Source of the DNA: a virus
Length of the DNA stretch: 13,212 nt
Virus genome (UHGV): UHGV-0125291
Strand: one strand, 5' to 3'
The notes under the pieces were generated by a model. The model searched no databases and was not told the origin of the DNA. It worked only from the letters and a program-made list of their open reading frames with translations. Each line of letters opens with the position of its first letter. The stretch's first letter is position 1. This document shows positions 2-13,163 of the stretch, in pieces. The translations under genes were made by a program, and so were the position numbers.

Positions 2-541
2 GAGCGTCGAAATAAGGGGCGGTCCAGGCCAAAAACCAAAAAGGATCCATTCTTATCGCTTGCGCCGGTAAAAGAAATTTCTCCACATGCGAAGGCACTT
101 GCAGCACTGGCAAAGAACCCAGACCTGCGCGACGGAAATTGCGAGCACTTCGAGCAGGTTTTCATTTTTGATTACTTCGAACGCAAGCACCCTGACATCT
201 ATGAGCTGTTGCATGCAACGCCTAACGGAGGGAAACGTTCAAAAGCAACCGCCGGGAAAATGAAGGCTGAAGGGCAGAAAAAAGGTTATCCGGACATGAG
301 TCTCGATAAAGCATGCGGTATTTATCACGGCATGCGAATTGAGCTTAAAGAACCAAATGGTAAAGCCCCGACGAAAGAGCAGATCGCCTGGATGCGCAGG
401 CTTAGAGAGGAAGGTTACTACGTCGTTCTTGCGTATGGTGCAGAACAAGCGATAACCGCCATCCTGGAATACATAAGCCTTAAAAAGGGTGAGGCTATTG
501 AGCATGTATTGAACGGCGACAAGTGGTTGTATGCTGCTTAA
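2..541 (+). CDS. VRR-NUC-like nuclease domain protein, 5' partial (frame open to the window edge)
   Basis: The reading frame is open from position 2 with no in-frame ATG upstream; the only in-window start is TTG at 209, which lacks a convincing SD. The C-terminal part (GYPDMSL...GMRIELKEPNGKAPTKEQIAWMRRLREEGYYVVLAYG) fits a PD-(D/E)xK / VRR-NUC pattern (PD...ELK). The family call is pattern recognition, not a search. Confidence 0.55.
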   Translation, partial: ERRNKGRSRPKTKKDPFLSLAPVKEISPHAKALAALAKNPDLRDGNCEHFEQVFIFDYFERKHPDIYELLHATPNGGKRSKATAGKMKAEGQKKGYPDMSLDKACGIYHGMRIELKEPNGKAPTKEQIAWMRRLREEGYYVVLAYGAEQAITAILEYISLKKGEAIEHVLNGDKWLYAA

Positions 542-607
542 AATAATAAATTAATTAGTGCATATGTGCTCTTTGATATAGCGCACATTAACATCGGGAG
601 AATAATC

Positions 608-763
608 GTGTCATTCAAGGCTAATTATGAATCGCTGGCATCGATCATGCCGCGTAATGAACAGGAAGCAGATGCTGTAGTGGACCCGGTAATCGCTGAA
701 ATGAATGCTCGCCTGGAGGCTGAATTTGCAGCTGAGAATGAACATACCACCCAGGGCGACTAG
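608..763 (+). CDS. small acidic hypothetical protein (about 51 aa)
   Basis: GTG at 608 lies 7 nt after GGGAG (595-599); the ORF track gives 566..763 from an upstream start without an RBS. The 3' end overlaps the next gene and contains its SD. Confidence 0.3.
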   Translation: MSFKANYESLASIMPRNEQEADAVVDPVIAEMNARLEAEFAAENEHTTQGD

Positions 764-1367
764 GACTGTTTTTTGTGTCGGTAGCGGTCCGTCACTCACT
801 CGTGAGGACTGTGCTGCTATAGAAAAAACTGGCTGTTCAATCATCGCGGTTAACAATTCCTGGCAGATGTTCGATGACATTTATGCCTTATACGCCGGTG
901 ATTTGTCATGGTGGAAGCAATACGGATCCACCATACCGGGAGGGAGATTCCGCAAAGTGACAGCCAACCTGGCGGCGGCGAAATCATTTTCGTTGGAGTA
1001 CAGGCGATATTGTGGACCGGCGGAAGGGGTAAATAGCGGCGCGCAGGCTATCAGTCTGGCTGCTGAATCAGGGGCTGAAGTAGTGGTATTAGTCGGCTAT
1101 GACTGTTCTCTGCAAAACGGCCTTCATTGGCATGGCGCGCGCCCTCAAGCACTACGGAATCCAACGCAGGTGTCTATTTCAAAATGGCAACAGCAGTTCC
1201 TGGATACCCGCAAAAAACACGCAGATTTACATATTTTGAATGCAAGTAGGAGCAGTGCAATTCAATGTTTCCCAAGAATAAATTTAGAGGCAGTGATCGC
1301 GTTATTATCGTCGGCAGTGGCCCAAGCGCCGCAAACTTTGTTGCGCCGCGCGGAGTGCCGATTATAG
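726..1367 (+). CDS. hypothetical protein with N-terminal GxGPS motif (VGSGPS...IIAVN...VLVGYD), paralog A
   Basis: ORF track 705..1367. The preferred start is TTG 726, 6 nt after GGAGG (715-719); ATG 705 and ATG 738 are alternatives. It shares motif order and spacing with the next gene. A possible DUF115/MptE-like Rossmann-fold assignment is weak. Confidence 0.6.
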   Translation: MQLRMNIPPRATRTVFCVGSGPSLTREDCAAIEKTGCSIIAVNNSWQMFDDIYALYAGDLSWWKQYGSTIPGGRFRKVTANLAAAKSFSLEYRRYCGPAEGVNSGAQAISLAAESGAEVVVLVGYDCSLQNGLHWHGARPQALRNPTQVSISKWQQQFLDTRKKHADLHILNASRSSAIQCFPRINLEAVIALLSSAVAQAPQTLLRRAECRL

Positions 1368-1891
1368 CGGTCAATGGGGCCATCGACTGGCTTAACCGCG
1401 CTTCTTATTTTTTCACCCTTGATCCATCGCCAGACAATATGCGGCGCGTTGGTCGTGGCCGCCGTCGCCGTGGTGTTTGTTATTGCATGGCGCTACCCGA
1501 TGTTAAAGAACGTGAGGTCAGAGACGGCGTTCTGTGCTTCCGTCGTGTGGCTGAGCGCGGCACGGAGCCAAAAAATACGAATTCTCCCGAGTGGTGGGCG
1601 TGGCGCTGGTCCGCACATTTCGGACTTTGCGAAGATGAGAATGAAATTGCCAGCGGCAATAGTGCATATGGTGCTCTGAACCTGGCTTTCCATATCGGAT
1701 TCAAACATGTAGCCCTGGTGGGCGTTGACGCTACGCAAGAACCACGCGTTCATTCCGGCGGCACGCCAAAAAATCTAAGTCACCTGCCTTTGTTATTCCA
1801 GTCTGCGCGTGAACAGATTGACGTTGTTTCATGCGGGAAAATGGGAGGTATTCCGCAGATGACTCTTAAAGAATGGCTGAAGAATACATGA
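1265..1891 (+). CDS. hypothetical protein with N-terminal GxGPS motif (IVGSGPS...IIAVN...LVGVD), paralog B
   Basis: ATG 1265 is preceded by AGGAG (1248-1252). It is the only in-frame start before the conserved motif, and it forces a 103-nt out-of-frame overlap with paralog A. The stop TGA 1889-1891 overlaps the ATG of the next gene. Confidence 0.65.
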
Positions 1892-2565
1892 TGGCACCAA
1901 CAATTTATCACCGTATCGACGGTACCAAATACAGGAATATCTGGGTTGTTGGTGATCTGCATGGTTGCTACACCAGACTGATGTCCGAACTCCATCGTGT
2001 GGATTTTGACCCTGCGCAGGATTTACTGATATCGGTCGGCGACCTTATCGATCGCGGCACCGAAAATGTTAAATGCTTGGAGCTATTGCAGATGCCATGG
2101 TTCAGAGCGGTTATGGGCAACCATGAGCGGCTGATGATTGATGCGTTAAGTCCTGATGGCAACGTGAATAATTGGCTAATGAATGGCGGTCAATGGTTCT
2201 TCATGCTGGACGCTGATCAGGAAATATTAGCCAGGGCGCTGGTGGAGTTGGTAAGACGACTGCCCTATATCATTGAGTTGAACACCGGGCAAGAAACTAT
2301 CGTTATAGCCCATGCCGACTATCCGGATAATGAATACCAATTCGGTAAGGAGGTGCCGCTTTTCAACGTTGTCTGGGCGCGCGAGCGTATCAGTGATTCG
2401 ATGGATGATATTGGTGGCGAAATTTCGGGCGCAGATCGTTTTATCTTTGGTCACACTCCGGTGAAAAGCCCGAAGACATTCTGGAATCAGCAGTATATCG
2501 ACACTGGTGCCGTATTTTGCGGAAACCTGACATTGATGAAAGTGAAAGGTGATGGTGCAGCATGA
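1888..2565 (+). CDS. Ser/Thr protein phosphatase, lambda PP (NinI / ORF221) family metallophosphatase
   Basis: Metallophosphatase motifs GDLHGC, GDLIDRG and GNHE are present, and the protein is collinear with lambda phosphatase as recalled. The start at ATG 1888 overlaps the upstream stop (ATGA); ATG 1873 and ATG 1891 are alternatives. P1 carries an equivalent gene (ppp) by memory, so the symbol is left blank. Confidence 0.9.
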
Positions 2566-3263
2566 AGATTGCTTTAGTTTTTCGCTCTGGTGGTGACTAT
2601 AACGCTTCCGATGTGCAGTGGCTGGTTAATCAACTGCCAAAAGGCTATGAAATTATTTGCCTGACAGACCTGAAGCGTTTACATGTACCTGGCGTCAAAG
2701 TTGTCCCATTGATCAACCAGTGGCAAAAGTGCCGTGGCTGGTGGGCGAAAATCGAGTTGTTCCGACCGGATATAACCGATGATCTGTTCTATCTGGATTT
2801 GGACACGGTTATTGCCGGTGATATACGCCCAATCCTTGAGAATCCACCAACCAGCTTCACCATGCTTAGGGATTTTTACCATCCACAATATCGTGGCAGC
2901 GGTGCCCTGTGGATACCAAATAGTGTAAAAGCGCATATCTGGAGTTCATTCTGGCAAGATCCGGAAGGTTGGATTTCTCGTTGTGTCACTACTGAGTGCT
3001 GGGGTGATCAGGGGTTCTTACGGAAGGTTATGGGCGATGATACACCAGCATTTCAGGATCTGTATCCAGGATGGTTTGTAAGTTACAAGGCCGATGTTGT
3101 GGAACCTGGTTCAAAATATGCGAGCGCGCGTTACTCCAGGGGGAATGGGGCATTACCAAAGGACTGCCGAATAATCTTTTTCCACGGCAAACCGCGACCT
3201 CGCGAAGTGTCAGAGGATTGGCTTCCCCTTATCAGCTCGTTTTTTGAGCGAGAATCAGAATAA
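2562..3263 (+). CDS. hypothetical protein with DxD motif ([12 protein letters not shown]), possible GT-A-like glycosyltransferase
   Basis: ATG 2562 overlaps the phosphatase stop (ATGA at 2562-2565), with AAGGTGA upstream. The N-terminal beta-alpha start ([12 protein letters not shown]) followed by DLD resembles nucleotide-sugar transferases. The function is inference only. Confidence 0.6.
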
Positions 3264-3264
3264 T

Positions 3265-3281
3265 ATTGCTCTAATAATTCC
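3265..3281 (+). promoter_or_regulatory. P1 C1-repressor operator-like site (ATTGCTCTAATAATTCC), overlapping a possible -35 (TTGCTC)
   Basis: 14 of 17 positions match the asymmetric P1 C1 operator consensus ATTGCTCTAATAAATTT (recalled from literature). It sits 2 nt after the stop of the upstream gene and is followed at a fixed 19-nt offset by ATTTTTAAAAC, as is the copy at 5406. Confidence 0.5.
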
Positions 3282-3289
3282 ATATTTTT

Positions 3290-3319
3290 AAAACGTGATG
3301 TACACTCATCACGTTTTTT
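3290..3319 (+). terminator. Rho-independent terminator
   Basis: An 11-bp stem AAAACGTGATG / CATCACGTTTT with a 6-nt loop (3301-3306) is followed by a T-run ending at 3319. Confidence 0.6.
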
Positions 3320-3330
3320 ATTAGAGCAAT
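3314..3330 (-). promoter_or_regulatory. second C1 operator-like site, inverted orientation
   Basis: The reverse complement of 3314-3330 is ATTGCTCTAATAAAAAA, a 14/17 match to the consensus. With the site at 3265-3281 it forms a 13-bp inverted repeat enclosing the terminator hairpin. Confidence 0.45.
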
Positions 3331-3564: not shown

Positions 3565-4827
3565 ATGAGCACTTCAGCACAAAACCAATCAATCGAAAAT
3601 GTATCTATCCCTGACGTCCTGAATGCCGGTATCCCGGCCATTATCCAGAACATCCGGGCCGCGCAACGCCGCGTTAGTTGTGATGACCTCACAGCGCGTT
3701 TTTTTGATAATGCGGTTCAGTCAGCGGAGATGCTTCACGCACAGCTTATTGATGTTTATAACGCAGAAGCTGATAGCCATAACTCCCTGGTAGATGCAGC
3801 TGAAAATATGCAGTTGGATCTCGGTCTGAAGGGTAAAGAAATTGAAGAGCTTCAGCTGGAAATTGAACATTTGAAACGCCAGCAACAGGACGCGATCGAC
3901 GATGCGACGCATGACGCCAACCAGCGTGCTGATAATGCCGAACGTATAAGCATTGAGCTGGAAACAAAACTCAATGAAATGACCGCGATGGTTGAACTGC
4001 GGAACTCACAGATTTCAACGCTAAAATCTCAATATAAAGAGATCATGAAACTTGATCCTTTTAACCTTGAGAAACGCTATAACAAAGCTAAAAGCGAGCG
4101 ACAGGAACTGCGTAAGCAGGTCGCCGACCTTAACCAACAGCTCAAAAAAACTATTAAAGATGCAAGCGAAGCGCGCGTGGCATTTGCTAATAAAAAAGCA
4201 GAGGTTACCGCGCTGGTTAATGAGAATGCCAAATTTGCGACGCTCAAGAAGGAAATGTATGGCATTACTGAGCGCCGTTTCCCTGCAAGCAAACTTCATC
4301 CGACGTTAGGGCAAATCTCCTTCTTCCCGCGCCTCCTGGCTTATGGGATCTCATCGCCTAAAGAGTTCAATAACGAGCGTCCTTATATCGTTTCTAAGCT
4401 GGACTTTGCTTATCAGTTCTGCTGCGACATGGGCTATGCCATTGATATCCGAATCAACGAATGGTTGATGCCAAACTTCCAGCCGTTGGCAATTTTCCGC
4501 GAGTTCCAGCCGGAAGGTTGGGTAGAGTTCTTCCATGAATTGATCTGTAAAGAGATGGAAAGCCGCCGCCCGGAATTGGTCCGTCGAGTTGAGTGGGCGC
4601 AAGAGGTTATGTTGGCAGATGCAGAGCTGCCGTTCGAACCGGAATTCATTGATGATCTGGCAACTAAAGGGCTGCATACCCTGTTTGATGTGGTTACCCG
4701 CCGTCATGAGCAGTTGGTTGTCGAATTGGGTTTAGAGGAAACTGCGGCAAGAAGACTTCTCGATGTTTGCTATGCACGTAGCGATGCATGGGAAAAAGAG
4801 AACGGCGGCACTATTTACGTTCGCTGA
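3565..4827 (+). CDS. coiled-coil protein of unknown function (420 aa) with a C-terminal globular domain
   Basis: Long ORF. Residues about 80-230 are a heptad-rich charged segment (EIEELQLEIEHLKRQQQ..., ELRKQVADLNQQLKK); the C-terminal roughly 190 aa is aromatic and Cys-containing. No catalytic motif is recognised. Confidence 0.8.
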   Translation: MSTSAQNQSIENVSIPDVLNAGIPAIIQNIRAAQRRVSCDDLTARFFDNAVQSAEMLHAQLIDVYNAEADSHNSLVDAAENMQLDLGLKGKEIEELQLEIEHLKRQQQDAIDDATHDANQRADNAERISIELETKLNEMTAMVELRNSQISTLKSQYKEIMKLDPFNLEKRYNKAKSERQELRKQVADLNQQLKKTIKDASEARVAFANKKAEVTALVNENAKFATLKKEMYGITERRFPASKLHPTLGQISFFPRLLAYGISSPKEFNNERPYIVSKLDFAYQFCCDMGYAIDIRINEWLMPNFQPLAIFREFQPEGWVEFFHELICKEMESRRPELVRRVEWAQEVMLADAELPFEPEFIDDLATKGLHTLFDVVTRRHEQLVVELGLEETAARRLLDVCYARSDAWEKENGGTIYVR

Positions 4828-4899: not shown

Positions 4900-5406
4900 T
4901 TGAGTATTTTCAATAAACACGCACACCAGGAACGTCCGTACATCGTCATAGTAGATATTGATGGGACGATATCAGAGGCAACGGAAGACAGGCTGCATTT
5001 ACTTCCACCACCTGGCAAAGGTGCATTAACAGAGCACTGGAACGAGTTTAACCTTGCCTGTGACACTGATGCTCCCATCACTCCAGTTATTGATATGGTG
5101 CGCCAGTTGTCCGGCATTTACACCCTCTGGTTTGTAACCGGGCGCTGTGAGATCGCAAGGGATAAAACACGAGCCTGGTTGCGTAAGCACGTAACAAATG
5201 GGGCTGAGCCTTTGCTATCTATGCGTCCTGCCACCGATGACAGAAATGACGGCCCAGCAAAGATTGATCTCCTTAAGAAAATTGGTCTAAGCAAAATTGC
5301 GTTCGCGCTGGAAGATAAGATTGAAGTGGCGCGTGTTTTCAGGAGGCACGGCGTGCTTACGTTAATGGTCAGGGAGTATGAAAACGCGCTTCTCCATCAA
5401 CAATAA
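4900..5406 (+). CDS. HAD-superfamily phosphatase-like protein
   Basis: TTG start at 4900 is 4 nt after AGGAGG (4890-4895). HAD motif I DxDGT is present (VIVDIDGTI), with a downstream Thr (FVTGR), Lys and LEDK consistent with motifs II-IV. Confidence 0.75.
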   Translation: MSIFNKHAHQERPYIVIVDIDGTISEATEDRLHLLPPPGKGALTEHWNEFNLACDTDAPITPVIDMVRQLSGIYTLWFVTGRCEIARDKTRAWLRKHVTNGAEPLLSMRPATDDRNDGPAKIDLLKKIGLSKIAFALEDKIEVARVFRRHGVLTLMVREYENALLHQQ

Positions 5407-5422
5407 TTGCTCTAATAAATCA
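5406..5422 (+). promoter_or_regulatory. third C1 operator-like site (ATTGCTCTAATAAATCA), overlapping a possible -35
   Basis: 15 of 17 positions match the C1 operator consensus. It starts at the last base of the HAD gene stop codon and is followed at the same 19-nt offset by ATTTTTAAAAC (5425-5435). Confidence 0.5.
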
Positions 5423-5670: not shown

Positions 5671-8600
5671 CTATATTTTTCCGCCTACGCCTTTAAACTT
5701 CTCAATAAACGAGACGATTTTCTGGAAAACTGCCTGTTTTTTCGTTTTATATTGCGGATTTAAAGGACTGAGTCTGGGCAGTGTCTCGTTTAATTCCGTG
5801 CCATTTTCGGTGGCGTATTCGCGTTTTAAAGACGTGCGAATATAGCGTTTCGCCGCCTCTTCATTGAGATTTTCTTCTTTTATCAATGCTTCTGCTTCAC
5901 GTTGCTGTTCGCGTTGAGCAAACGTAAAGAATGCGTCAATGATGCTGGCTTTGTCCGGTAAATCATCCAGGTTCGTTTGCTGAATAAAATCGACCACCAG
6001 GCCCTCTTTAGCACGGTTCCCCAGGCTTGAACGAATTAAGCGTTTGACCTCTTCGATCATTTCGCCCTTGCCTTTATTTTGTCTGTTGTGTTCGAAAATC
6101 AGTCCAAGGATATAATCCAGGTTTATTTCCTGAGACTTCAGCAAATCGACCTCAAAAACTACGTCATCCCAGTCAGTGGTTGATTTCTCTTTTTTCTCAG
6201 CTTCTTTCTCACGGCGCTGCCAGTCGCGAATATCGTTATAGGCAGAACGATAATCCTGAATCTTGCGATCAGCAGGGAGACGAATTGTTTGCAATTCAGC
6301 GAACTTTTCATCATCCACATAATGTTCTGCTTTGAATTTTTCTACCGCAACAGGATCGCTAAGATCGATTTGTTGCAGGGCTTTCAGCGTGGCAAATTCA
6401 TCATAGTTTTGCAGGATGTTCTCGGCACGCAGGTATTCACCAAACAGTTTAACGAAGTCTTTCTTCTCTTTTTCACTTTCAATACTGGTAGGGTCAGGGA
6501 ACCGTTGTTCCAGTTCTGAAACTACTGTCATGAAGCCGCGTTTAGCTTCACCAGTGGCAGCATCAGTAAAGCCTTCCATATACTCTGCATAACTCTTTTC
6601 TAAAACCACATTTTTGGTGTTTTTGTCACCAAACAGCGTTATGGCATCAATAGTTGAGCGTTCCAGATCCCGGAAAGTGACGATATTACCGAAGGTTTTA
6701 GTTGCATCATAAATACGGTTGGTGCGGGAAAATGCCTGCATCAGGCCGTGAAAACGCAAGTTTTTATCGACGAATAGCGTGTTCAATGTTGGAGCATCGA
6801 AGCCGGTTAAAAACATCCCCACGACAATTAACAGATCGATATCCTGATTTTTAACCCGTTGGGCTAAATCGCGATAGTAGTTCTGAAAACCGTTACCGTC
6901 GGTGCTGAAGTTAGTTTTAAAATAGCTGTTATACTCACGAATTGCAGCGTCAAGAAACTCTTTAGCACTGCTGTCCATTGCGCTGGTATCAAAAGTTTCA
7001 TCGGAAATTTCACCAATGGCATTTTGTTCTTCATTGGCGGCAAAGGAGAAGATTGTCGCAACACGCAGCGGTTTATAGGTAGCCGATTTATTAGCTGCTT
7101 CCTCTTGTAACCGTTTAAACGTCGCATAATAGGCTTTCGCGGCATCCACGCTGCTCACTGCCAACATAGCATTAAAACCTTTTGAGCCAGGGAAGGTACG
7201 GTGAGTTTTCTGGCGGAAATTATTCAGAATATATTGCGTGATTTCCTGAATACGCATGGGATGAAGAAACGCCTGCTGATTTTCAGCCGCACTTAGTTTT
7301 TTCTCGTCAGTTTCTGTCTCTAAAGACTTAAACTGTGGCCGCACATCGTTGTAGTCCACCTTGAATTTGAGCACTTTTTCGTCACGAATCGCATCGGTAA
7401 TTACATACGAATGCAATTCACGACCAAATACGCTGGCGGTTGTTTCTGAGCCTAAGGCGTTTTCCGGGAAAATAGGGGTGCCGGTAAAACCAAACTGATA
7501 ATAGCGTTTGAATTTCTTCTTCAGGTTTTTCTGCGCTTCTCCAAACTGGCTGCGGTGGCATTCATCAAATATAAACACCACTTGCTGATTGTATACAGGC
7601 AGGTCGCTTTCTGCTTTCATCAGGTTATTGAGTTTCTGAATAGTAGTGACGATAATTTTGTTATCGTCCTTATCCAGATTTCGTTTAAGGCCTGCGGTAT
7701 TTTCCGAGCCGTTGACGCTGTCTGGCGAAAAACGCTGATATTCCTTCATGGTCTGGTAATCGAGGTCTTTCCTGTCGACCACAAAGAAGACTTTATCAAT
7801 AAAGTCCAGCTCTGTTGCCAGACGCGCGGCTTTAAAGCTGGTGAGGGTTTTACCAGAACCGGTAGTGTGCCAGATATACCCACCGCTTTCCGGTTTTGAC
7901 CAGTTCTTCGCTGTAAAGGAACTCTTAATTTTCCACAGAATGCGCTCGGTGGCGGCAATCTGGTACGGTCGCATCACCAGTAGCGTCTGACTACTGTCAA
8001 AAACGCTGTAGTTCACCAGAACATTCAGCAGAGTATGTTTCTGGAAAAAGGTAGCGGTAAAGTCTTTGAGGTCTTTAATCAGCGTGTTGTCTGATTTCGC
8101 CCAGTTCATGGTGAAGTCAAAACTGTTTTTATCGCGCTTTGTCGTGTTGGCAAAATAACGGGTATCGGTGCCGTTAGAAATGACAAACAGTTGCAGATAC
8201 TTAAACAGGGAATTTTCGCTGTTAAAACTCTCTTTACTGTAACGATGTATCTGGTTGAAAGCCTCACGAATCGCCACCCCGCGTTTTTTTAGTTCGATTT
8301 GCACCAGCGGTAAACCATTAACCAGGATCGTGACGTCATAACGGTTAGCATGAGAACCCGTCTGTTCAAACTGCTGGATAATCTGCACCTTATTGCGCAT
8401 GAGATTCTTTTTATCTATCAAATAGATGTTCTCAAGTCGCCCGTCGTCAAAAATAAAGTCGCAGATATAGTCGATATGGATTTTACGGGTCTTATCCAGA
8501 ATGCCATCGCTGGGGTTGTCCAGATACTGCTCCGTGAAGCGCCGCCACTCGCTGTCATTAAACATCACACCATTGAGGCTCTGAAGCTGTTCCCGAACAT

Positions 8601-8787
8601 TAGACAGCATTGCCGACTGTGATTTTACGGAAATAAATTCATAACCCTGATTCCGCAGGTCCTGAATCAGTTCACGTTCCAGGTCCGATTCGCTCTGGTA
8701 GCTGTCGCTTGTTTGCTCAGCTTTGATGTACTTATCAAGGACGATAAAGTTATTGGATTCAGCAATGGTGTGTGTTTGATGAGTCAT
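5671..8787 (-). CDS. hsdR: Type I restriction enzyme R subunit (HsdR), EcoR124 (Type IC) family
   Basis: 1038 aa. Walker A ([11 protein letters not shown]) and a DEAD-box-like motif (FDECH) are present. The N-terminus [24 protein letters not shown] matches EcoR124I HsdR as recalled. RBS AAGGA lies 5 nt before the ATG. Confidence 0.95.
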
Positions 8788-8908
8788 AGCGCATCCTTTG
8801 TGCCGCCTGGCAAGGGCCGGAAAGGCGTTAAGAGTGACTTCCGGCGCGTAAAAAATAGTCTATATACTGACCGGATGTTAAGGAGGCCCGGTCGGTAGCA
8901 ATGGTCAA

Positions 8909-10143
<1,235 letters not shown>

Positions 10144-10147
<4 letters not shown>

Positions 10148-11706
10148 GATTGCGCCTCGTCACCTTCAATCTTTGCCACAATTGCATCAATATCTTTACG
10201 CAACTGGTCGATTTTGCTGACCGTGGTTTTCAGCTCAGCATTCAGCTCACCGATATCGATAATTTCGCGGTTATCTTTCGCTTCCACATAGCTGCTCACC
10301 GACAGGTTATAGTCATTCGCGACAACAGTCTCAAACGTGACAGATTTTGCCAGATGAGCAACATCTTCCTTGCTGGCAAATACCTGCATAATCTGTTCGA
10401 TATGGGCATCGGTCAGGATATTGTTGTTGGTCTCTTTTTTGAACAGTTCGCTGGCGTCAATAAACTGAACGTTGGTATCCGTTTTATGTTTAGACAGAAC
10501 CAGAATGTTTACGGCAATGGTGGTGCCAAAGAACAGGTTCGGTGCCAGTGAAATCACGGTTTCGACATAGTTATTGTCGACCAGATACTGACGGATTTTC
10601 TGCTCCGCGCCGCCACGGTAAAAAATACCCGGGAAGCAGACAATCGCAGCACGACCTTTGGCCGAAAGATAGTTCAGCGCATGTAATACAAACGCAAAGT
10701 CAGCTTTGGATTTGGGGGCCAGAACGCCAGCCGGGGCAAAACGCTCATCGTTAATCAGCGTCGGGTCATCGCTGCCAATCCATTTCACCGAATACGGCGG
10801 GTTAGAAACGATGGCATCAAACGGTTTTTCATCTCTGAAGTGCGGCTCAGTCAGCGTATTGCCCAGCTTGATATCAAACTTGTCGTAGTTGATGTTGTGC
10901 AAAAACATGTTCATACGCGCCAGGTTATAGGTCGTATGGTTGATTTCCTGACCAAAAAAACCTTCTTCGATGATATGGTTATCAAACTGTTTTTTCGCCT
11001 GCAACAACAGTGAGCCGGAACCCGCTGCCGGGTCGTAGATTTTGTTAACGCTGGTCTGCCCGTGCATAGCCAGTTGTGCAATCAGCTTGGAGACGTGCTG
11101 CGGTGTAAAGAACTCGCCGCCTGACTTACCAGCATTCGCCGCATAGTTAGAAATCAGGAACTCATAGGCATCACCGAACAGGTCAATCTGATGTTCGTTG
11201 AAGTCACCAAGTTTTAACCCTTCAACCCCTTTCAGAACCGCAGCCAGGCGGGCATTTTTATCTTTAACGGTGTTACCCAGGCGGTTACTGGTGGTATCGA
11301 AATCAGCAAACAAACCTTTGATGTCAGCTTCTGAAGGGTAACCGTAAGCAGAACTTTCGATAGCAACGAAGATGCTGTTTAAATCTGCATTCAGTCTGTC
11401 ATTGGTATTTGCTTTCGCAGCTACGTTGCAGAAAAGCTGACTGGGGTAGATGAAGTAGCCTTTAGTTTTGATGGCATCGTCTTTAATGTCATCAGTAATT
11501 ACGCTGTCATCCAGTTTCGCATAACAGATACTGTCATCACCGGCTTCAATATAACTGGAAAAATTTTCGCTGATAAAACGGTAGAAAAGCGCGCCCAGAA
11601 CGTATTGCTTAAAATCCCATCCATCGACCGAACCCCTGACATCGTTAGCAATTTGCCAGATTTGACGATGAAGCTCTGCACGTTGTTGAATACTTGTCAT
11701 TTTCAT
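10144..11706 (-). CDS. hsdM: Type I R-M DNA methyltransferase subunit (HsdM), N6-adenine
   Basis: 520 aa. The AdoMet motif ([10 protein letters not shown]) and the catalytic NPPY motif (SNPPYS) are present. A second Met 2 codons in (ATG 11698-11700) is an alternative start. Confidence 0.95.
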
Positions 11707-11873: not shown

Positions 11874-11882
11874 GAGGTGTTT

Positions 11883-12104
11883 GTGCAATCCATTAACTTC
11901 CGTACCGCGCGTGGCAACCTTTCTGAAGTGCTCAACAATGTTGAAGCCGGGGAAGAGGTTGAAATCACCCGCAGAGGCCGTGAGCCAGCAGTAATTGTCA
12001 GCAAGGCTACTTTCGAAGCCTACAAAAAAGCGGCGCTGGATGCTGAATTTGCATCCCTGTTTGACACCCTGGACTCCACCAACAAGGAACTGGTTAACCG
12101 ATAA
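11883..12104 (+). CDS. phd: Phd antitoxin (prevent-host-death), P1 type
   Basis: A GTG start at 11883 gives [73 protein letters not shown], 73 aa, matching P1 Phd as recalled. The ORF track starts 2 codons upstream at 11877. The stop TAA overlaps the doc ATG (TAATG). Confidence 0.9.
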
Positions 12105-12484
12105 TGAGGCATATATCACCGGAAGAACTTATTGCGCTTCATGATGCGAATATAAGCCGCTACGGCGGCCTGCCGGGAATGTCAGATCCGGGTAGGGCAG
12201 AGGCCATTATCGGGAGAGTTCAGGCCAGAGTTGCCTACGAAGAGATCACCGACCTTTTCGAAGTCTCCGCCACCTACCTGGTGGCTACAGCGAGAGGGCA
12301 TATATTCAATGATGCCAATAAGCGTACCGCGCTAAACAGTGCGCTGTTATTTCTACGCCGTAACGGGGTGCAGGTATTTGATTCACCTGAACTGGCAGAC
12401 CTTACCGTAGGGGCTGCGACCGGAGAGATATCTGTATCTTCTGTCGCCGACACGTTACGTAGATTGTATGGTTCTGCGGAGTAG
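12104..12484 (+). CDS. doc: Doc toxin (death-on-curing), Fic-fold kinase
   Basis: 126 aa with the Fic/Doc motif HIFNDANKR. It is translationally coupled to phd and the sequence matches P1 Doc as recalled. Confidence 0.9.
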
Positions 12485-12695: not shown

Positions 12696-13163
12696 GTGAA
12701 AGCCGTAATTACTCCCTTTGTACAGAAAGAGCTTGGCCTCGCCACGTTCAAAGTGGATCAGGAGGTCCGAAAGCTGGTGGAGGCTGGCCGTAAATTTATT
12801 ATGGAGCCGGTGCCGCGTGAGTTAATCGAGCACATGGAAGACGGCCTCGTTGTTACCGAGCAAACCATGGCAACAAATGAGGCGTTGCAGCCGTTTTTTA
12901 ACAGCGATGAACTGTTTCGCCGTATTGGTGGAATTGACGCGCTGGTGGCGTGGTTGCGCAGGAAAGAGGGGCAATGCCAGGCCGCAGATCGTAGCTGGTG
13001 TGACAACCATATTGTCCACGCAGAACGAGACAATAGCGCGGTGTTGTTGTGCTGGCATCACGATAACCATTACCGGATGCGTGGTTTTAATGAGCTGAAA
13101 GAAACGCTGCATAATAATCGCGTTAACTGGATACTGGATGTCGCCCGTCAGGAAATGGGGTAA
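12696..13163 (+). CDS. Cys/His-rich hypothetical protein (155 aa), in the position of P1 pdcB
   Basis: GTG 12696 is preceded by AAAGGTG. The C-terminal half carries C-x7-C-x3-H-x3-H...C-x-H-H, a possible metal-binding cluster. Function unknown. Confidence 0.6.

Follow-up and report, generated by a model that had tools for sequence, protein, structure and literature searches.

What does the pmgQ gene of P1-like phages encode, and on what would its product act? We take up the question for UHGV virus genome UHGV-0125291, a stretch of 13,212 nucleotides (hereafter the window, meaning that whole stretch), which comes from a P1-like phage-plasmid (Punavirus) and is 97% identical to P1 on alignment in the operon region. 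Here the pmgQ open reading frame (ORF) runs exactly from 2562 to 3263 on the plus strand, ATG to TAA, and specifies 233 residues. Its conserved motifs and modeled fold indicate that PmgQ is very probably an active, GT8-like, retaining GT-A transferase that uses a uridine diphosphate (UDP)-sugar. The enzyme class as such is already predicted by public databases and hence known. The original P1 annotation of pmgQ is "putative morphogenetic function", and RefSeq (NC_005856, NC_050152) now gives the product as "glycosyltransferase". PHROG 1962 carries the same label, in the category moron, auxiliary metabolic gene and host takeover. The glycosyltransferase idea is thus not new, and the finding as first stated, in a sequence-only reading of this DNA, was an ordinary one: a correct guess that agrees with existing database annotation. 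None of the literature searched ascribes a phenotype to PmgQ or names it a glycosyltransferase. Beyond that literature lie the GT8-type motif assignment, the kinship of the neighboring PmgO and PmgP with WaaZ and Maf, a cassette that is sometimes fused, and three kinds of genomic context, all of which we offer as leads, not results.

Conservation, Fold, and Motifs of PmgQ

pmgQ is a real, conserved gene with a conserved motif, and no chance ORF. It shares 98.6% nucleotide identity over 702 bp with P1 pmgQ (AF234172, 81449–82150), and its DNA is 98.0%–99.4% identical in 19 P1-like phage records. The protein matches PHROG 1962 over its full length (E 4.9e-128, residues 1–233 on profile positions 1–230). 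In a library of 1.84 billion proteins the family comprises 5,674 cluster representatives (50% identity) at E ≤ 1e-3, and 1,690 at E ≤ 1e-30. General-purpose family databases are silent. PmgQ matches no Pfam family at E ≤ 1, including no match to PF01501 (Glyco_transf_8) at gathering score; none of 41 PmgQ homologues has any family among precomputed Pfam assignments; and NCBIfam gives no match. A single-sequence search of the PDB yields one marginal GT8 match (E 0.08), so that a family profile was needed. Reading through the sequence revealed no long hydrophobic segment.

The 41 homologues found by searching gave 27 nonredundant sequences for alignment, which was widened by 80 diverse viral loci to 101 nonredundant sequences with identities down to ~30%. 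Residues W60, W61, K63, D79, L80, D81, T82, S113, G148, D149, S174, K176, H208, G209, P211, and P213 are invariant in the first set (27/27). In the wider one, D79, D81, D149, and G209 are kept in 101 of 101 relatives; K63, H208, S174, and K176 in 99; Q150 in 98; and G10 in 93. The resulting motif set is K63, D79-L-D81, S113-G114, G148-D149-Q150, and H208-G-K-P-R-P213 (family form H208-G-x-P-R/K-P). The sequence-only reading had started from an N-terminal beta-strand with a Gly-rich start, which is borne out by a predicted strand at residues 2–7 followed by a conserved Gly loop around the well-kept G10. It had also taken a hydrophobic-DLD-hydrophobic motif for a hallmark of GT-A enzymes. A DxD tripeptide is frequent by chance, so that argument was weak alone; it has been strengthened by the strict conservation of both aspartates and by the fold described below. 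The motif reads F-Y-L-D79-L-D81-T-V-I and stands at the end of a predicted strand (75–78).

The AlphaFold2 model of PmgQ (predicted local distance difference test score 94.4, predicted template-modeling score 0.91) shows alternating beta/alpha order, and its fold is GT-A with GT8 enzymes nearest. All of the top 50 Foldseek matches in the PDB are GT8 GT-A enzymes (E 1e-8 to 1e-6, probability 1.00, template-modeling scores 0.45–0.60). They include AgtA (6mw5, E 1e-8), glycogenin-1/2, GlyE, LgtC, WbbM, XXYLT1, LARGE1, and an Anaerococcus GT8 enzyme. Searched against PDB sequences, the family profile finds 6mw5 (E 1.9e-6), GlyE (E 4e-3), and glycogenin (E 0.02). The profile alignment places WaKieLF on ytKLhiF, YlDLDTvi on YIDADAIV or FMDADTLV, laSGvm on FNSGVF, wGDQgf on GGDQGL, and HGkPrP on GQTKPW. 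The DLD of PmgQ thus aligns with the DAD of AgtA and glycogenin and the DSD of GlyE, and its GDQ with the GDQ of glycogenin and the GD of AgtA. Identity to the solved GT8 structures is 11%–17%, and the family profile scores an hhalign probability of 36% against WaaJ.

In the structures of LgtC and glycogenin, the DxD motif binds metal, an Asp-Gln pair lies over the donor sugar (D162/Q163 in glycogenin, D188/Q189 in LgtC), a Lys binds phosphate, and a His near the C-terminus completes the set as third metal ligand. By analogy, the divalent metal that engages a UDP-hexose through its diphosphate would be held in PmgQ by D79, D81, and H208, with K63 and R212 touching the phosphates and D149-Q150 lying over the sugar. 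PmgQ is GT8-like in motifs and fold; since PF01501 goes unmatched, formal membership in family GT8 is not established.

The pmgN–pmgQ Operon

The gene order pmgN-pmgO-pmgP-ppp-pmgQ-pmgR-pmgS-pap, read from the window ORFs and their family matches, is shared with the P1 annotation. The features around pmgQ are as follows.

209–541: gene for a VRR-NUC protein, first of the neighbors in P1 order
509–544 (+): predicted PpmgN promoter region of the pmgN–pmgQ operon; P1 annotates the PpmgN -35 and -10 elements at equivalent positions
548–564 (-): C1 repressor operator Oppp (formerly Op83), annotated in P1 at 3987–4003 of locus L001
608–763 (+): pmgN, a small gene that heads the operon, positional equivalent of P1 pmgN
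705–1367 (+): pmgO, putative transferase of a Kdo-type ulosonic acid from a CMP-sugar (Kdo, 3-deoxy-D-manno-octulosonic acid; CMP, cytidine monophosphate), WaaZ/Maf-like with an MptE-like fold, from profile and fold matches
1265–1891 (+): pmgP, second WaaZ/Maf-like paralogue, from Pfam and PHROG matches
1873–2565 (+): ppp, lambda NinI-like Ser/Thr phosphatase between pmgP and pmgQ (Pfam Metallophos E 8e-16; PHROG 246 E 1e-112)
2562–3263 (+): pmgQ (hdmD in P7), predicted GT8-like retaining GT-A glycosyltransferase; DxD codons 79–81 at nucleotides 2796–2804
3265–3330: operon end, with two C1 operators at 3265–3281 (+) and 3314–3330 (-) and the pmgR promoter; P1 annotates OpmgRa, OpmgRb, and PpmgR

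A sigma-70-like match at 516–544 falls inside the PpmgN region, and Oppp differs from its P1 counterpart at 1 of 17 positions. Because a C1 operator is annotated at this place in P1, the operon would be silent in the lysogen and switched on during lytic growth. The P1 C1 operator consensus has three matches in the window against 0.08 expected by chance; the third lies at 5406–5422, past pap (OpmgT in P1). Right after pmgQ, flanked by two C1 operators, is an 11-bp inverted repeat with a T-run at 3290–3319, AAAACGTGATG/CATCACGTTTT. The pmgQ start codon overlaps the ppp stop codon (ATGA, 2562–2565), and the two genes are therefore probably translationally coupled.

Two further observations concern the head of the operon. 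The annotated pmgO and pmgP ORFs overlap by 103 nt (1265–1367). A CRISPR interference (CRISPRi) screen scored pmgN as essential although a pmgN deletion is viable (PMC10695390, table). As pmgN overlaps the start of pmgO and heads the operon, this discrepancy may reflect where the guide blocks transcription. Simple polarity on pmgO–pmgQ is an unlikely cause, because those genes are nonessential.

PmgO, PmgP, and a Recurring Cassette

The two genes that precede ppp point to a partner activity for PmgQ. PmgO matches the Pfam MptE-like family below cutoff (E 6e-5) and PHROG 4603, "alpha-2,3-sialyltransferase" (E 2e-72). PmgP matches the MptE-like family (E 3e-4), PHROG 2111 (E 4e-132), and PHROG 4603 (E 2e-5), and groups with PmgO-like proteins in cluster 1; the two proteins are paralogues. 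The match of PmgP to the WaaZ model TIGR04437 is weak (E 0.11, against a 200-bit cutoff). A profile of the PmgO/PmgP family, however, aligns with Escherichia coli K-12 WaaZ over 185 columns at an hhalign probability of 94.7% (E 5.6e-8), and its matches to MptE and Cst-II are marginal (E ~0.003–0.007). WaaZ is the transferase of the third inner-core Kdo (KdoIII), and KdoIII glycoforms are accompanied by outer-core truncation (PMC4651636). An AlphaFold2 model of PmgO, built from a second homologue search (predicted local distance difference test score 86), has the Maf flagellin glycosyltransferase 5mu5 as its sole match at E ≤ 0.001 (E 4e-5), followed by the sialyltransferase ST6GALNAC2. One further profile match, to BurrH (E 2e-9), was rejected as an artefact, because many weak matches of a GGNSGxxAL segment to repeats like those of transcription activator-like effectors sum up to the score.

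A first scan of viral contigs returned only P1-like loci; repeated with the distant-homologue alignment, it gave 81 diverse viral loci. ORF calling was crude, above all in high-GC bacterial loci, and only contexts confirmed by Pfam, PHROG, or NCBIfam are counted here as evidence. An MptE/WaaZ-like or FkbM methyltransferase gene stands within four genes of the PmgQ homologue in at least 47 of the 81 viral loci. A PmgQ domain and an MptE-like domain are also fused in a single chain (protein P0142, PF01973 E 5e-20; also BFVD matches), and other PmgQ-domain fusions involve S-adenosylmethionine (SAM) methyltransferases, rhamnosyl-O-methyltransferase/CmcI domains, and weak GT9-like segments. The cassette is widespread and uncurated; methyl- or pyruvyl-transferases are often present and the domains sometimes fused. 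Together with the operon that PmgO, PmgP, and PmgQ share in P1, this recurrence makes it likely that PmgQ acts jointly with PmgO/PmgP. The phosphatase gene ppp was not recovered beside the cassette in the 81 non-P1 viral loci, and ppp therefore probably stands outside the glycosylation set.

The cassette also varies in gene number. In three jumbo-phage loci (L102, L147, L154), two MptE-like genes, separated by a further GT-A gene (PF03407), precede the PmgQ homologue. Two PmgQ paralogues occur per cassette in two further loci, adjacent in L086 (7300–8657) and one small ORF apart in L087.

Genomic Contexts of PmgQ Relatives

Relatives of PmgQ are found in three kinds of surroundings, of which the first is next to capsid genes. 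In many environmental phages (IMG/VR), the cassette lies right behind the major capsid protein (MCP) gene and ahead of connector or tail genes. With Q for the PmgQ homologue, MT for methyltransferase, and TerL for the large terminase subunit, the order in HK97-like phages (PF05065) is TerL-portal-protease-MCP-(small gene)-MptE/MT-Q-connector-Hc1-gp10-terminator. In T7-like phages it is portal-scaffold-MCP-c6-MptE2-Q-tubular A-tubular B. The same position is seen with Gp13-like (PF20036) and Linocin/DUF6260-like capsid genes, and with a head-fibre-like gene. A connector or tail gene follows in 36 of the 81 viral loci, and at least 43 have a recognized capsid gene within five genes upstream or a connector/tail gene within four genes downstream.

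Small genes (78–99 residues) between the MCP gene and the cassette encode a short N-terminal domain and a low-complexity tail. The tail is Ser/Pro/Ala/Thr-rich in clusters c47 (L114, L151, L161, L165) and c61 (L107, L109, L125), and Pro/Ala/Gly/Arg-rich in c51 (L117, L118, L140, L141). These proteins are possible O-glycosylation acceptors or decoration proteins. In a Zixibacteria metagenome-assembled genome (MAG; L191, 7372–10875), a Linocin/DUF6260-type capsid gene is followed by an MptE-like and PmgQ-like pair and then by a radical SAM/SPASM enzyme and a methyltransferase, an arrangement that suggests a more elaborate modification pathway.

The second kind of context is bacterial lipopolysaccharide (LPS) gene clusters. 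In Pectobacterium sp. B1J-3 (L170), a WaaZ-like gene (TIGR04437 E 3e-22) adjoins the PmgQ homologue within a waa-type LPS core cluster that also holds GT4, a WaaP-family kinase, a sulfatase-family protein, a GT8 LPS galactosyltransferase-like gene, and GT25. In an Opitutales MAG (L184), a WaaZ-like/PmgQ-like pair stands among GT4, FkbM, GT90, and WaaP/WaaY-like kinase genes.

In the third kind of context, seen in enterobacteria and their temperate phages, the gene stands alone in the chromosome or occupies an accessory-gene ("moron") site. Pantoea and Rouxiella carry lone chromosomal copies among housekeeping genes. Phage Chlobot has a lone homologue between its integrase and tail-fibre/lom genes, and in phage phiNP Rz and terS enclose an MptE-like and PmgQ-like pair; in lambdoid phages, each of these places is a classic moron site. 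A chromosomal homologue in Salmonella enterica (CP191473, L178, 6350–8684) lies ~0.7 kb away from the flagellar master regulators flhDC and near a gene for an endolysin-like protein of glycoside hydrolase family 19; this locus is probably a prophage remnant.

Among isolated phages, 32 records have a homologue. They are phages of Escherichia, Salmonella, Enterobacteria, Cronobacter, Citrobacter, Xanthomonas, Stenotrophomonas, and Pelagibacter, plus one with no host given, and every named host is Gram-negative. In a crude, unbootstrapped neighbor-joining tree, the P1-like members group with the lone enterobacterial chromosomal copies. The adjacent clade contains Chlobot, the Salmonella chromosomal copy, phiNP, and the Pectobacterium waa-locus member, whereas the capsid-adjacent members are placed in other parts of the tree; among the members sampled here, the enterobacterial clade with P1 has no capsid-adjacent one.

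Candidate Acceptors

The contexts of PmgQ relatives disagree on the acceptor. For P1 we tentatively favor the view that the operon of pmgQ remodels the host LPS inner core, the region of the P1 receptor, a view we hold as quite possible though short of even confidence. As to which sugars are donated, in what order, to which acceptor, and with what benefit, we infer the following. PmgO/PmgP would act first, adding a Kdo-type ulosonic acid from a CMP-sugar (CMP-Kdo), a donor present in essentially all LPS-producing Gram-negative hosts. PmgQ, as a cytoplasmic, metal-dependent, retaining GT-A enzyme of GT8 type (glycogenin-, LgtC-, or WaaJ-like), would take the second step and transfer a hexose from a UDP-sugar. 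The acceptor would be the nascent LPS inner core while it is still on the cytoplasmic side of the inner membrane. Infected cells would then shift to a KdoIII-type core, modified or truncated, with an altered P1 receptor, and the benefit could be superinfection exclusion or progeny that are not lost on debris.

The P1 receptor is the LPS core. P1kc infects and plates on K-12 with rough LPS, not smooth LPS (PMC10578602). The profile match of PmgO/PmgP to WaaZ, the Pectobacterium and Opitutales clusters, the grouping in the neighbor-joining tree, and the Gram-negative hosts would all seem to favor the LPS core. So would an experimental precedent in Acinetobacter baumannii, where the KdoIII transferase KdoT is followed in the inner core by the UDP-sugar transferase GnaT (PMC12856342).

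A number of observations weigh against it. No experiment in the literature searched ties P1 to LPS changes. The operon is C1-repressed, and so this would not be classical lysogenic conversion; moreover, LPS made in one lytic cycle replaces only part of the cell surface. Phages deleted for pmgO, pmgP, or pmgQ are normal in plaque formation and anti-restriction (PMC9024508), and CRISPRi agrees (efficiency of plating 1.4; PMC10695390). PmgO and PmgP fall below the WaaZ equivalog cutoffs, and the nearest structural neighbors of PmgQ and PmgO include protein-glycan enzymes (AgtA, glycogenin, and GlyE; Maf). In the last PmgQ motif, R212-P213 aligns with the K-P of KPW, but the His is two residues nearer to the Gly than in the GT8 form HxxGxxKPW. 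The tree, as said, is crude and unbootstrapped. pmgQ itself sits in a phage operon in the window and not in a waa cluster, a location seen only in the Pectobacterium and Opitutales homologues. Finally, at least 33 of the 81 loci carry the cassette immediately behind the major capsid gene, with four capsid gene families represented. Such capsid-adjacent contexts are unexplained by an LPS acceptor and easier to understand under a virion-directed role.

That role is the strongest alternative. PmgO/PmgP and PmgQ would build a short O-glycan on the P1 capsid, tail, or fibres during morphogenesis, which would shield or stabilize the virion and be dispensable in the laboratory. Across diverse phages the MCP and connector/tail genes enclose the homologue, mostly accompanied by an MptE-like gene, an FkbM methyltransferase gene, or both, and proteins with Ser/Pro/Thr-rich tails are encoded between the capsid gene and the cassette. 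AgtA, GlyE, XXYLT1, and LARGE1, all among the top GT8 matches of PmgQ, lengthen glycans attached to proteins, and glycogenin is a self-glucosylating enzyme. Maf, to which PmgO has its best structural match, is likewise a protein (flagellin) glycosyltransferase. In P1 the head-completion genes pmgR and pmgS come next after pmgQ, with the late promoter LPpmgL upstream. That plaques are unaffected also fits, and there is a precedent in phages Che8, Corndog, and Myrna, whose capsid and tail-tube proteins are glycosylated by nonessential phage enzymes (PMC12363180, PMC11256854). Against this, glycosylation of P1 virion proteins is not reported in the literature searched, and the main text of the P1 virion proteome paper mentions neither PmgQ nor glycosylation. 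The sampled enterobacterial clade that contains P1 lacks the capsid-adjacent context (in the crude tree), and the lone Pantoea and Rouxiella copies and those in LPS core clusters cannot act on virions. The site behind the capsid gene could be merely a tolerated, highly expressed insertion site. On balance we judge virion glycosylation unlikely to be the role of the P1 operon, although in the capsid-adjacent clades it may well be what the cassette really does.

The enzyme class and the cytoplasmic location would suit many other cellular acceptors, such as enterobacterial common antigen, capsule or O-unit intermediates, or a host protein modified in host takeover. The PHROG category of pmgQ agrees with such a role, as does the Ser/Thr phosphatase gene inside the P1 operon. 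Related cassettes contain polysaccharide pyruvyl transferase, sugar O-methyltransferases, GT9-like domains, and further GT-A genes, as in polysaccharide assembly. No specific context link to common-antigen, capsule, or O-antigen genes was seen, however; both bacterial clusters carry LPS-core kinase (WaaP/WaaY) markers and not O-antigen or capsule export genes, and ppp was not recovered beside the cassette in the non-P1 viral loci. An acceptor of this sort seems improbable.

The original P1 annotation and the nearness to tail and head-completion genes suggest a nonenzymatic morphogenetic protein, whose GT-A fold would be degenerate and which would serve in structure or assembly. This is very improbable, since catalytic-type residues are invariant or nearly so in more than 100 relatives, which argues for a conserved active site; in addition, pmgQ is nonessential for plaques and its product is absent from the main text and tables of the virion proteome paper.

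T4 DNA glucosyltransferases have the GT-B fold and are not GT8-like. Glycosylation of phage DNA bases for anti-restriction, after the manner of T-even glucosyltransferases or 5-hydroxymethylcytosine-glycan enzymes, can hardly be entertained: the sequence-only reading had raised it, phage DNA-modifying glycosyltransferases exist (bioRxiv 10.1101/2023.12.21.572611; PMC12619734), and restriction-modification and anti-restriction-related biology lies nearby in the window, but no hydroxymethyl-pyrimidine pathway genes were seen there or beside the homologues examined, the anti-restriction activity of pmg deletion mutants is unchanged (PMC9024508), and copies in bacterial LPS loci and lone chromosomal copies are a misfit. 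Of the targets first proposed, then, a receptor is favored, in the form of the LPS core, with virion proteins added as its rival, and DNA is improbable.

A bolder reading sees a phage cassette of a WaaZ/Maf-like CMP-ulosonic-acid transferase and a PmgQ-type GT8-like hexosyltransferase. It would either put a Kdo-containing glycan on the virions of Gram-negative phages, where it stands behind major capsid genes of at least four families, or, in P1-like elements, re-route the LPS inner core during lytic growth so as to mask the phage's own receptor. As a whole this scheme is speculative and rather doubtful.

Other Features of the Window

Between pap and the addiction module, where P1 has pmgT–humD, the window carries a complete type I restriction-modification system (5671–11706).

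5671–8787 (-): hsdR
8909–10147 (-): hsdS
10144–11706 (-): hsdM
11877–12104 and 12104–12484: phd-doc addiction module
12696–13163: gene at the P1 pdcA position, matching the first 154 of 334 positions of PHROG 96 (HNH endonuclease)

Only the flanks of the hsd region are common to P1 (6% of query). The same insertion is found in phages phi456 (100% coverage, 98.5% identity) and vB_EcoM-673R5, and the P1 record itself notes a likeness of these flanks to DNA surrounding the hsd loci of EcoDXXI and R124/3. A perfect 12-bp tandem repeat of 3.3 copies at 9553–9592 encodes (TAEL)3 in central HsdS. In the EcoR124 family, the copy number of such a 12-bp repeat sets the length of the recognition-site spacer, and the repeat could be a specificity-switching site.

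Significance

P1 is among the most used phages in genetics, and three of the five genes of its pmgN–pmgQ operon look like glycosyltransferases. Should the LPS core be what the operon remodels, this would represent a new kind of receptor masking within a lytic-phase program, with a bearing on P1 host range and transduction efficiency. If its relatives glycosylate virions, the mycobacteriophage "glycan shield" would extend to Gram-negative phages, which matters for phage therapy and immune recognition. Either outcome, if true, would be without precedent, whether as virion glycosylation in phages other than actinobacteriophages or as remodeling of the LPS core (not the O-antigen) by soluble cytoplasmic transferases of a phage. 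Given 5,674 clusters and no Pfam or NCBIfam match, many genomes probably carry the PmgQ family without a specific annotation.

Comparison with Known Systems

The closest comparison is with P1 PmgQ and P7 HdmD, which have the same gene and operon neighbors; nothing substantial differs in the gene, and the difference between the window element and P1 lies further downstream, where the type I system takes the place of pmgT–humD. Fold and motif set are common to PmgQ and the GT8 enzymes (glycogenin, Neisseria meningitidis LgtC, Dictyostelium AgtA, Streptococcus pneumoniae GlyE, and E. coli WaaJ/WaaO). The set runs from the Lys of the xxKL helix through DxD, (N)SG, and GDQ to a C-terminal His...Gly..(K/R)-Pro, in which the PmgQ His is two residues out of the GT8 register. 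The chemistry to be expected of PmgQ by this analogy is use of a UDP-hexose with a divalent metal and retention of configuration. PmgQ is, however, more compact than most GT8 enzymes at ~233 residues, and has invariants specific to its own family, among them W60-W61 and S174-x-K176.

By profile, PmgO and PmgP appear homologous to E. coli WaaZ, but they are shorter (208–220 residues against 283). KdoT and GnaT of A. baumannii resemble the proposed PmgO/PmgP–PmgQ logic, Kdo transfer followed by UDP-sugar transfer (PMC12856342), although they have GT-B folds and are unrelated in sequence to PmgO/PmgP and PmgQ.

Che8 gp110, Corndog gp38, and the Myrna enzyme are phage-encoded and nonessential for plaques and act on the phages' own capsid and tail-tube proteins; virion glycosylation is so far shown in mycobacteriophages only (PMC12363180, PMC11256854). 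Many PmgQ relatives are placed inside capsid/connector modules. The mycobacteriophage hosts, however, are Gram-positive-type, and cluster F1 glycosyltransferase genes lie near the genome 3' end (stated for Maravista, PMC11256854).

Seroconverting prophages (gtrABC, O-acetyltransferases) modify host LPS through genes of their own and thereby alter the availability of receptors. The Chlobot homologue, at an integrase-proximal accessory-gene site, resembles them in placement, such sites being typical of gtr genes. No gtrA flippase, gtrB bactoprenol glucosyltransferase, or serotype-specific membrane glycosyltransferase is found among the window ORFs and their family matches. The Gtr systems consist of membrane proteins that act periplasmically on the O-antigen and are on in lysogens, whereas PmgQ is predicted to be soluble and GT8-like and, in P1, is under C1 repression.

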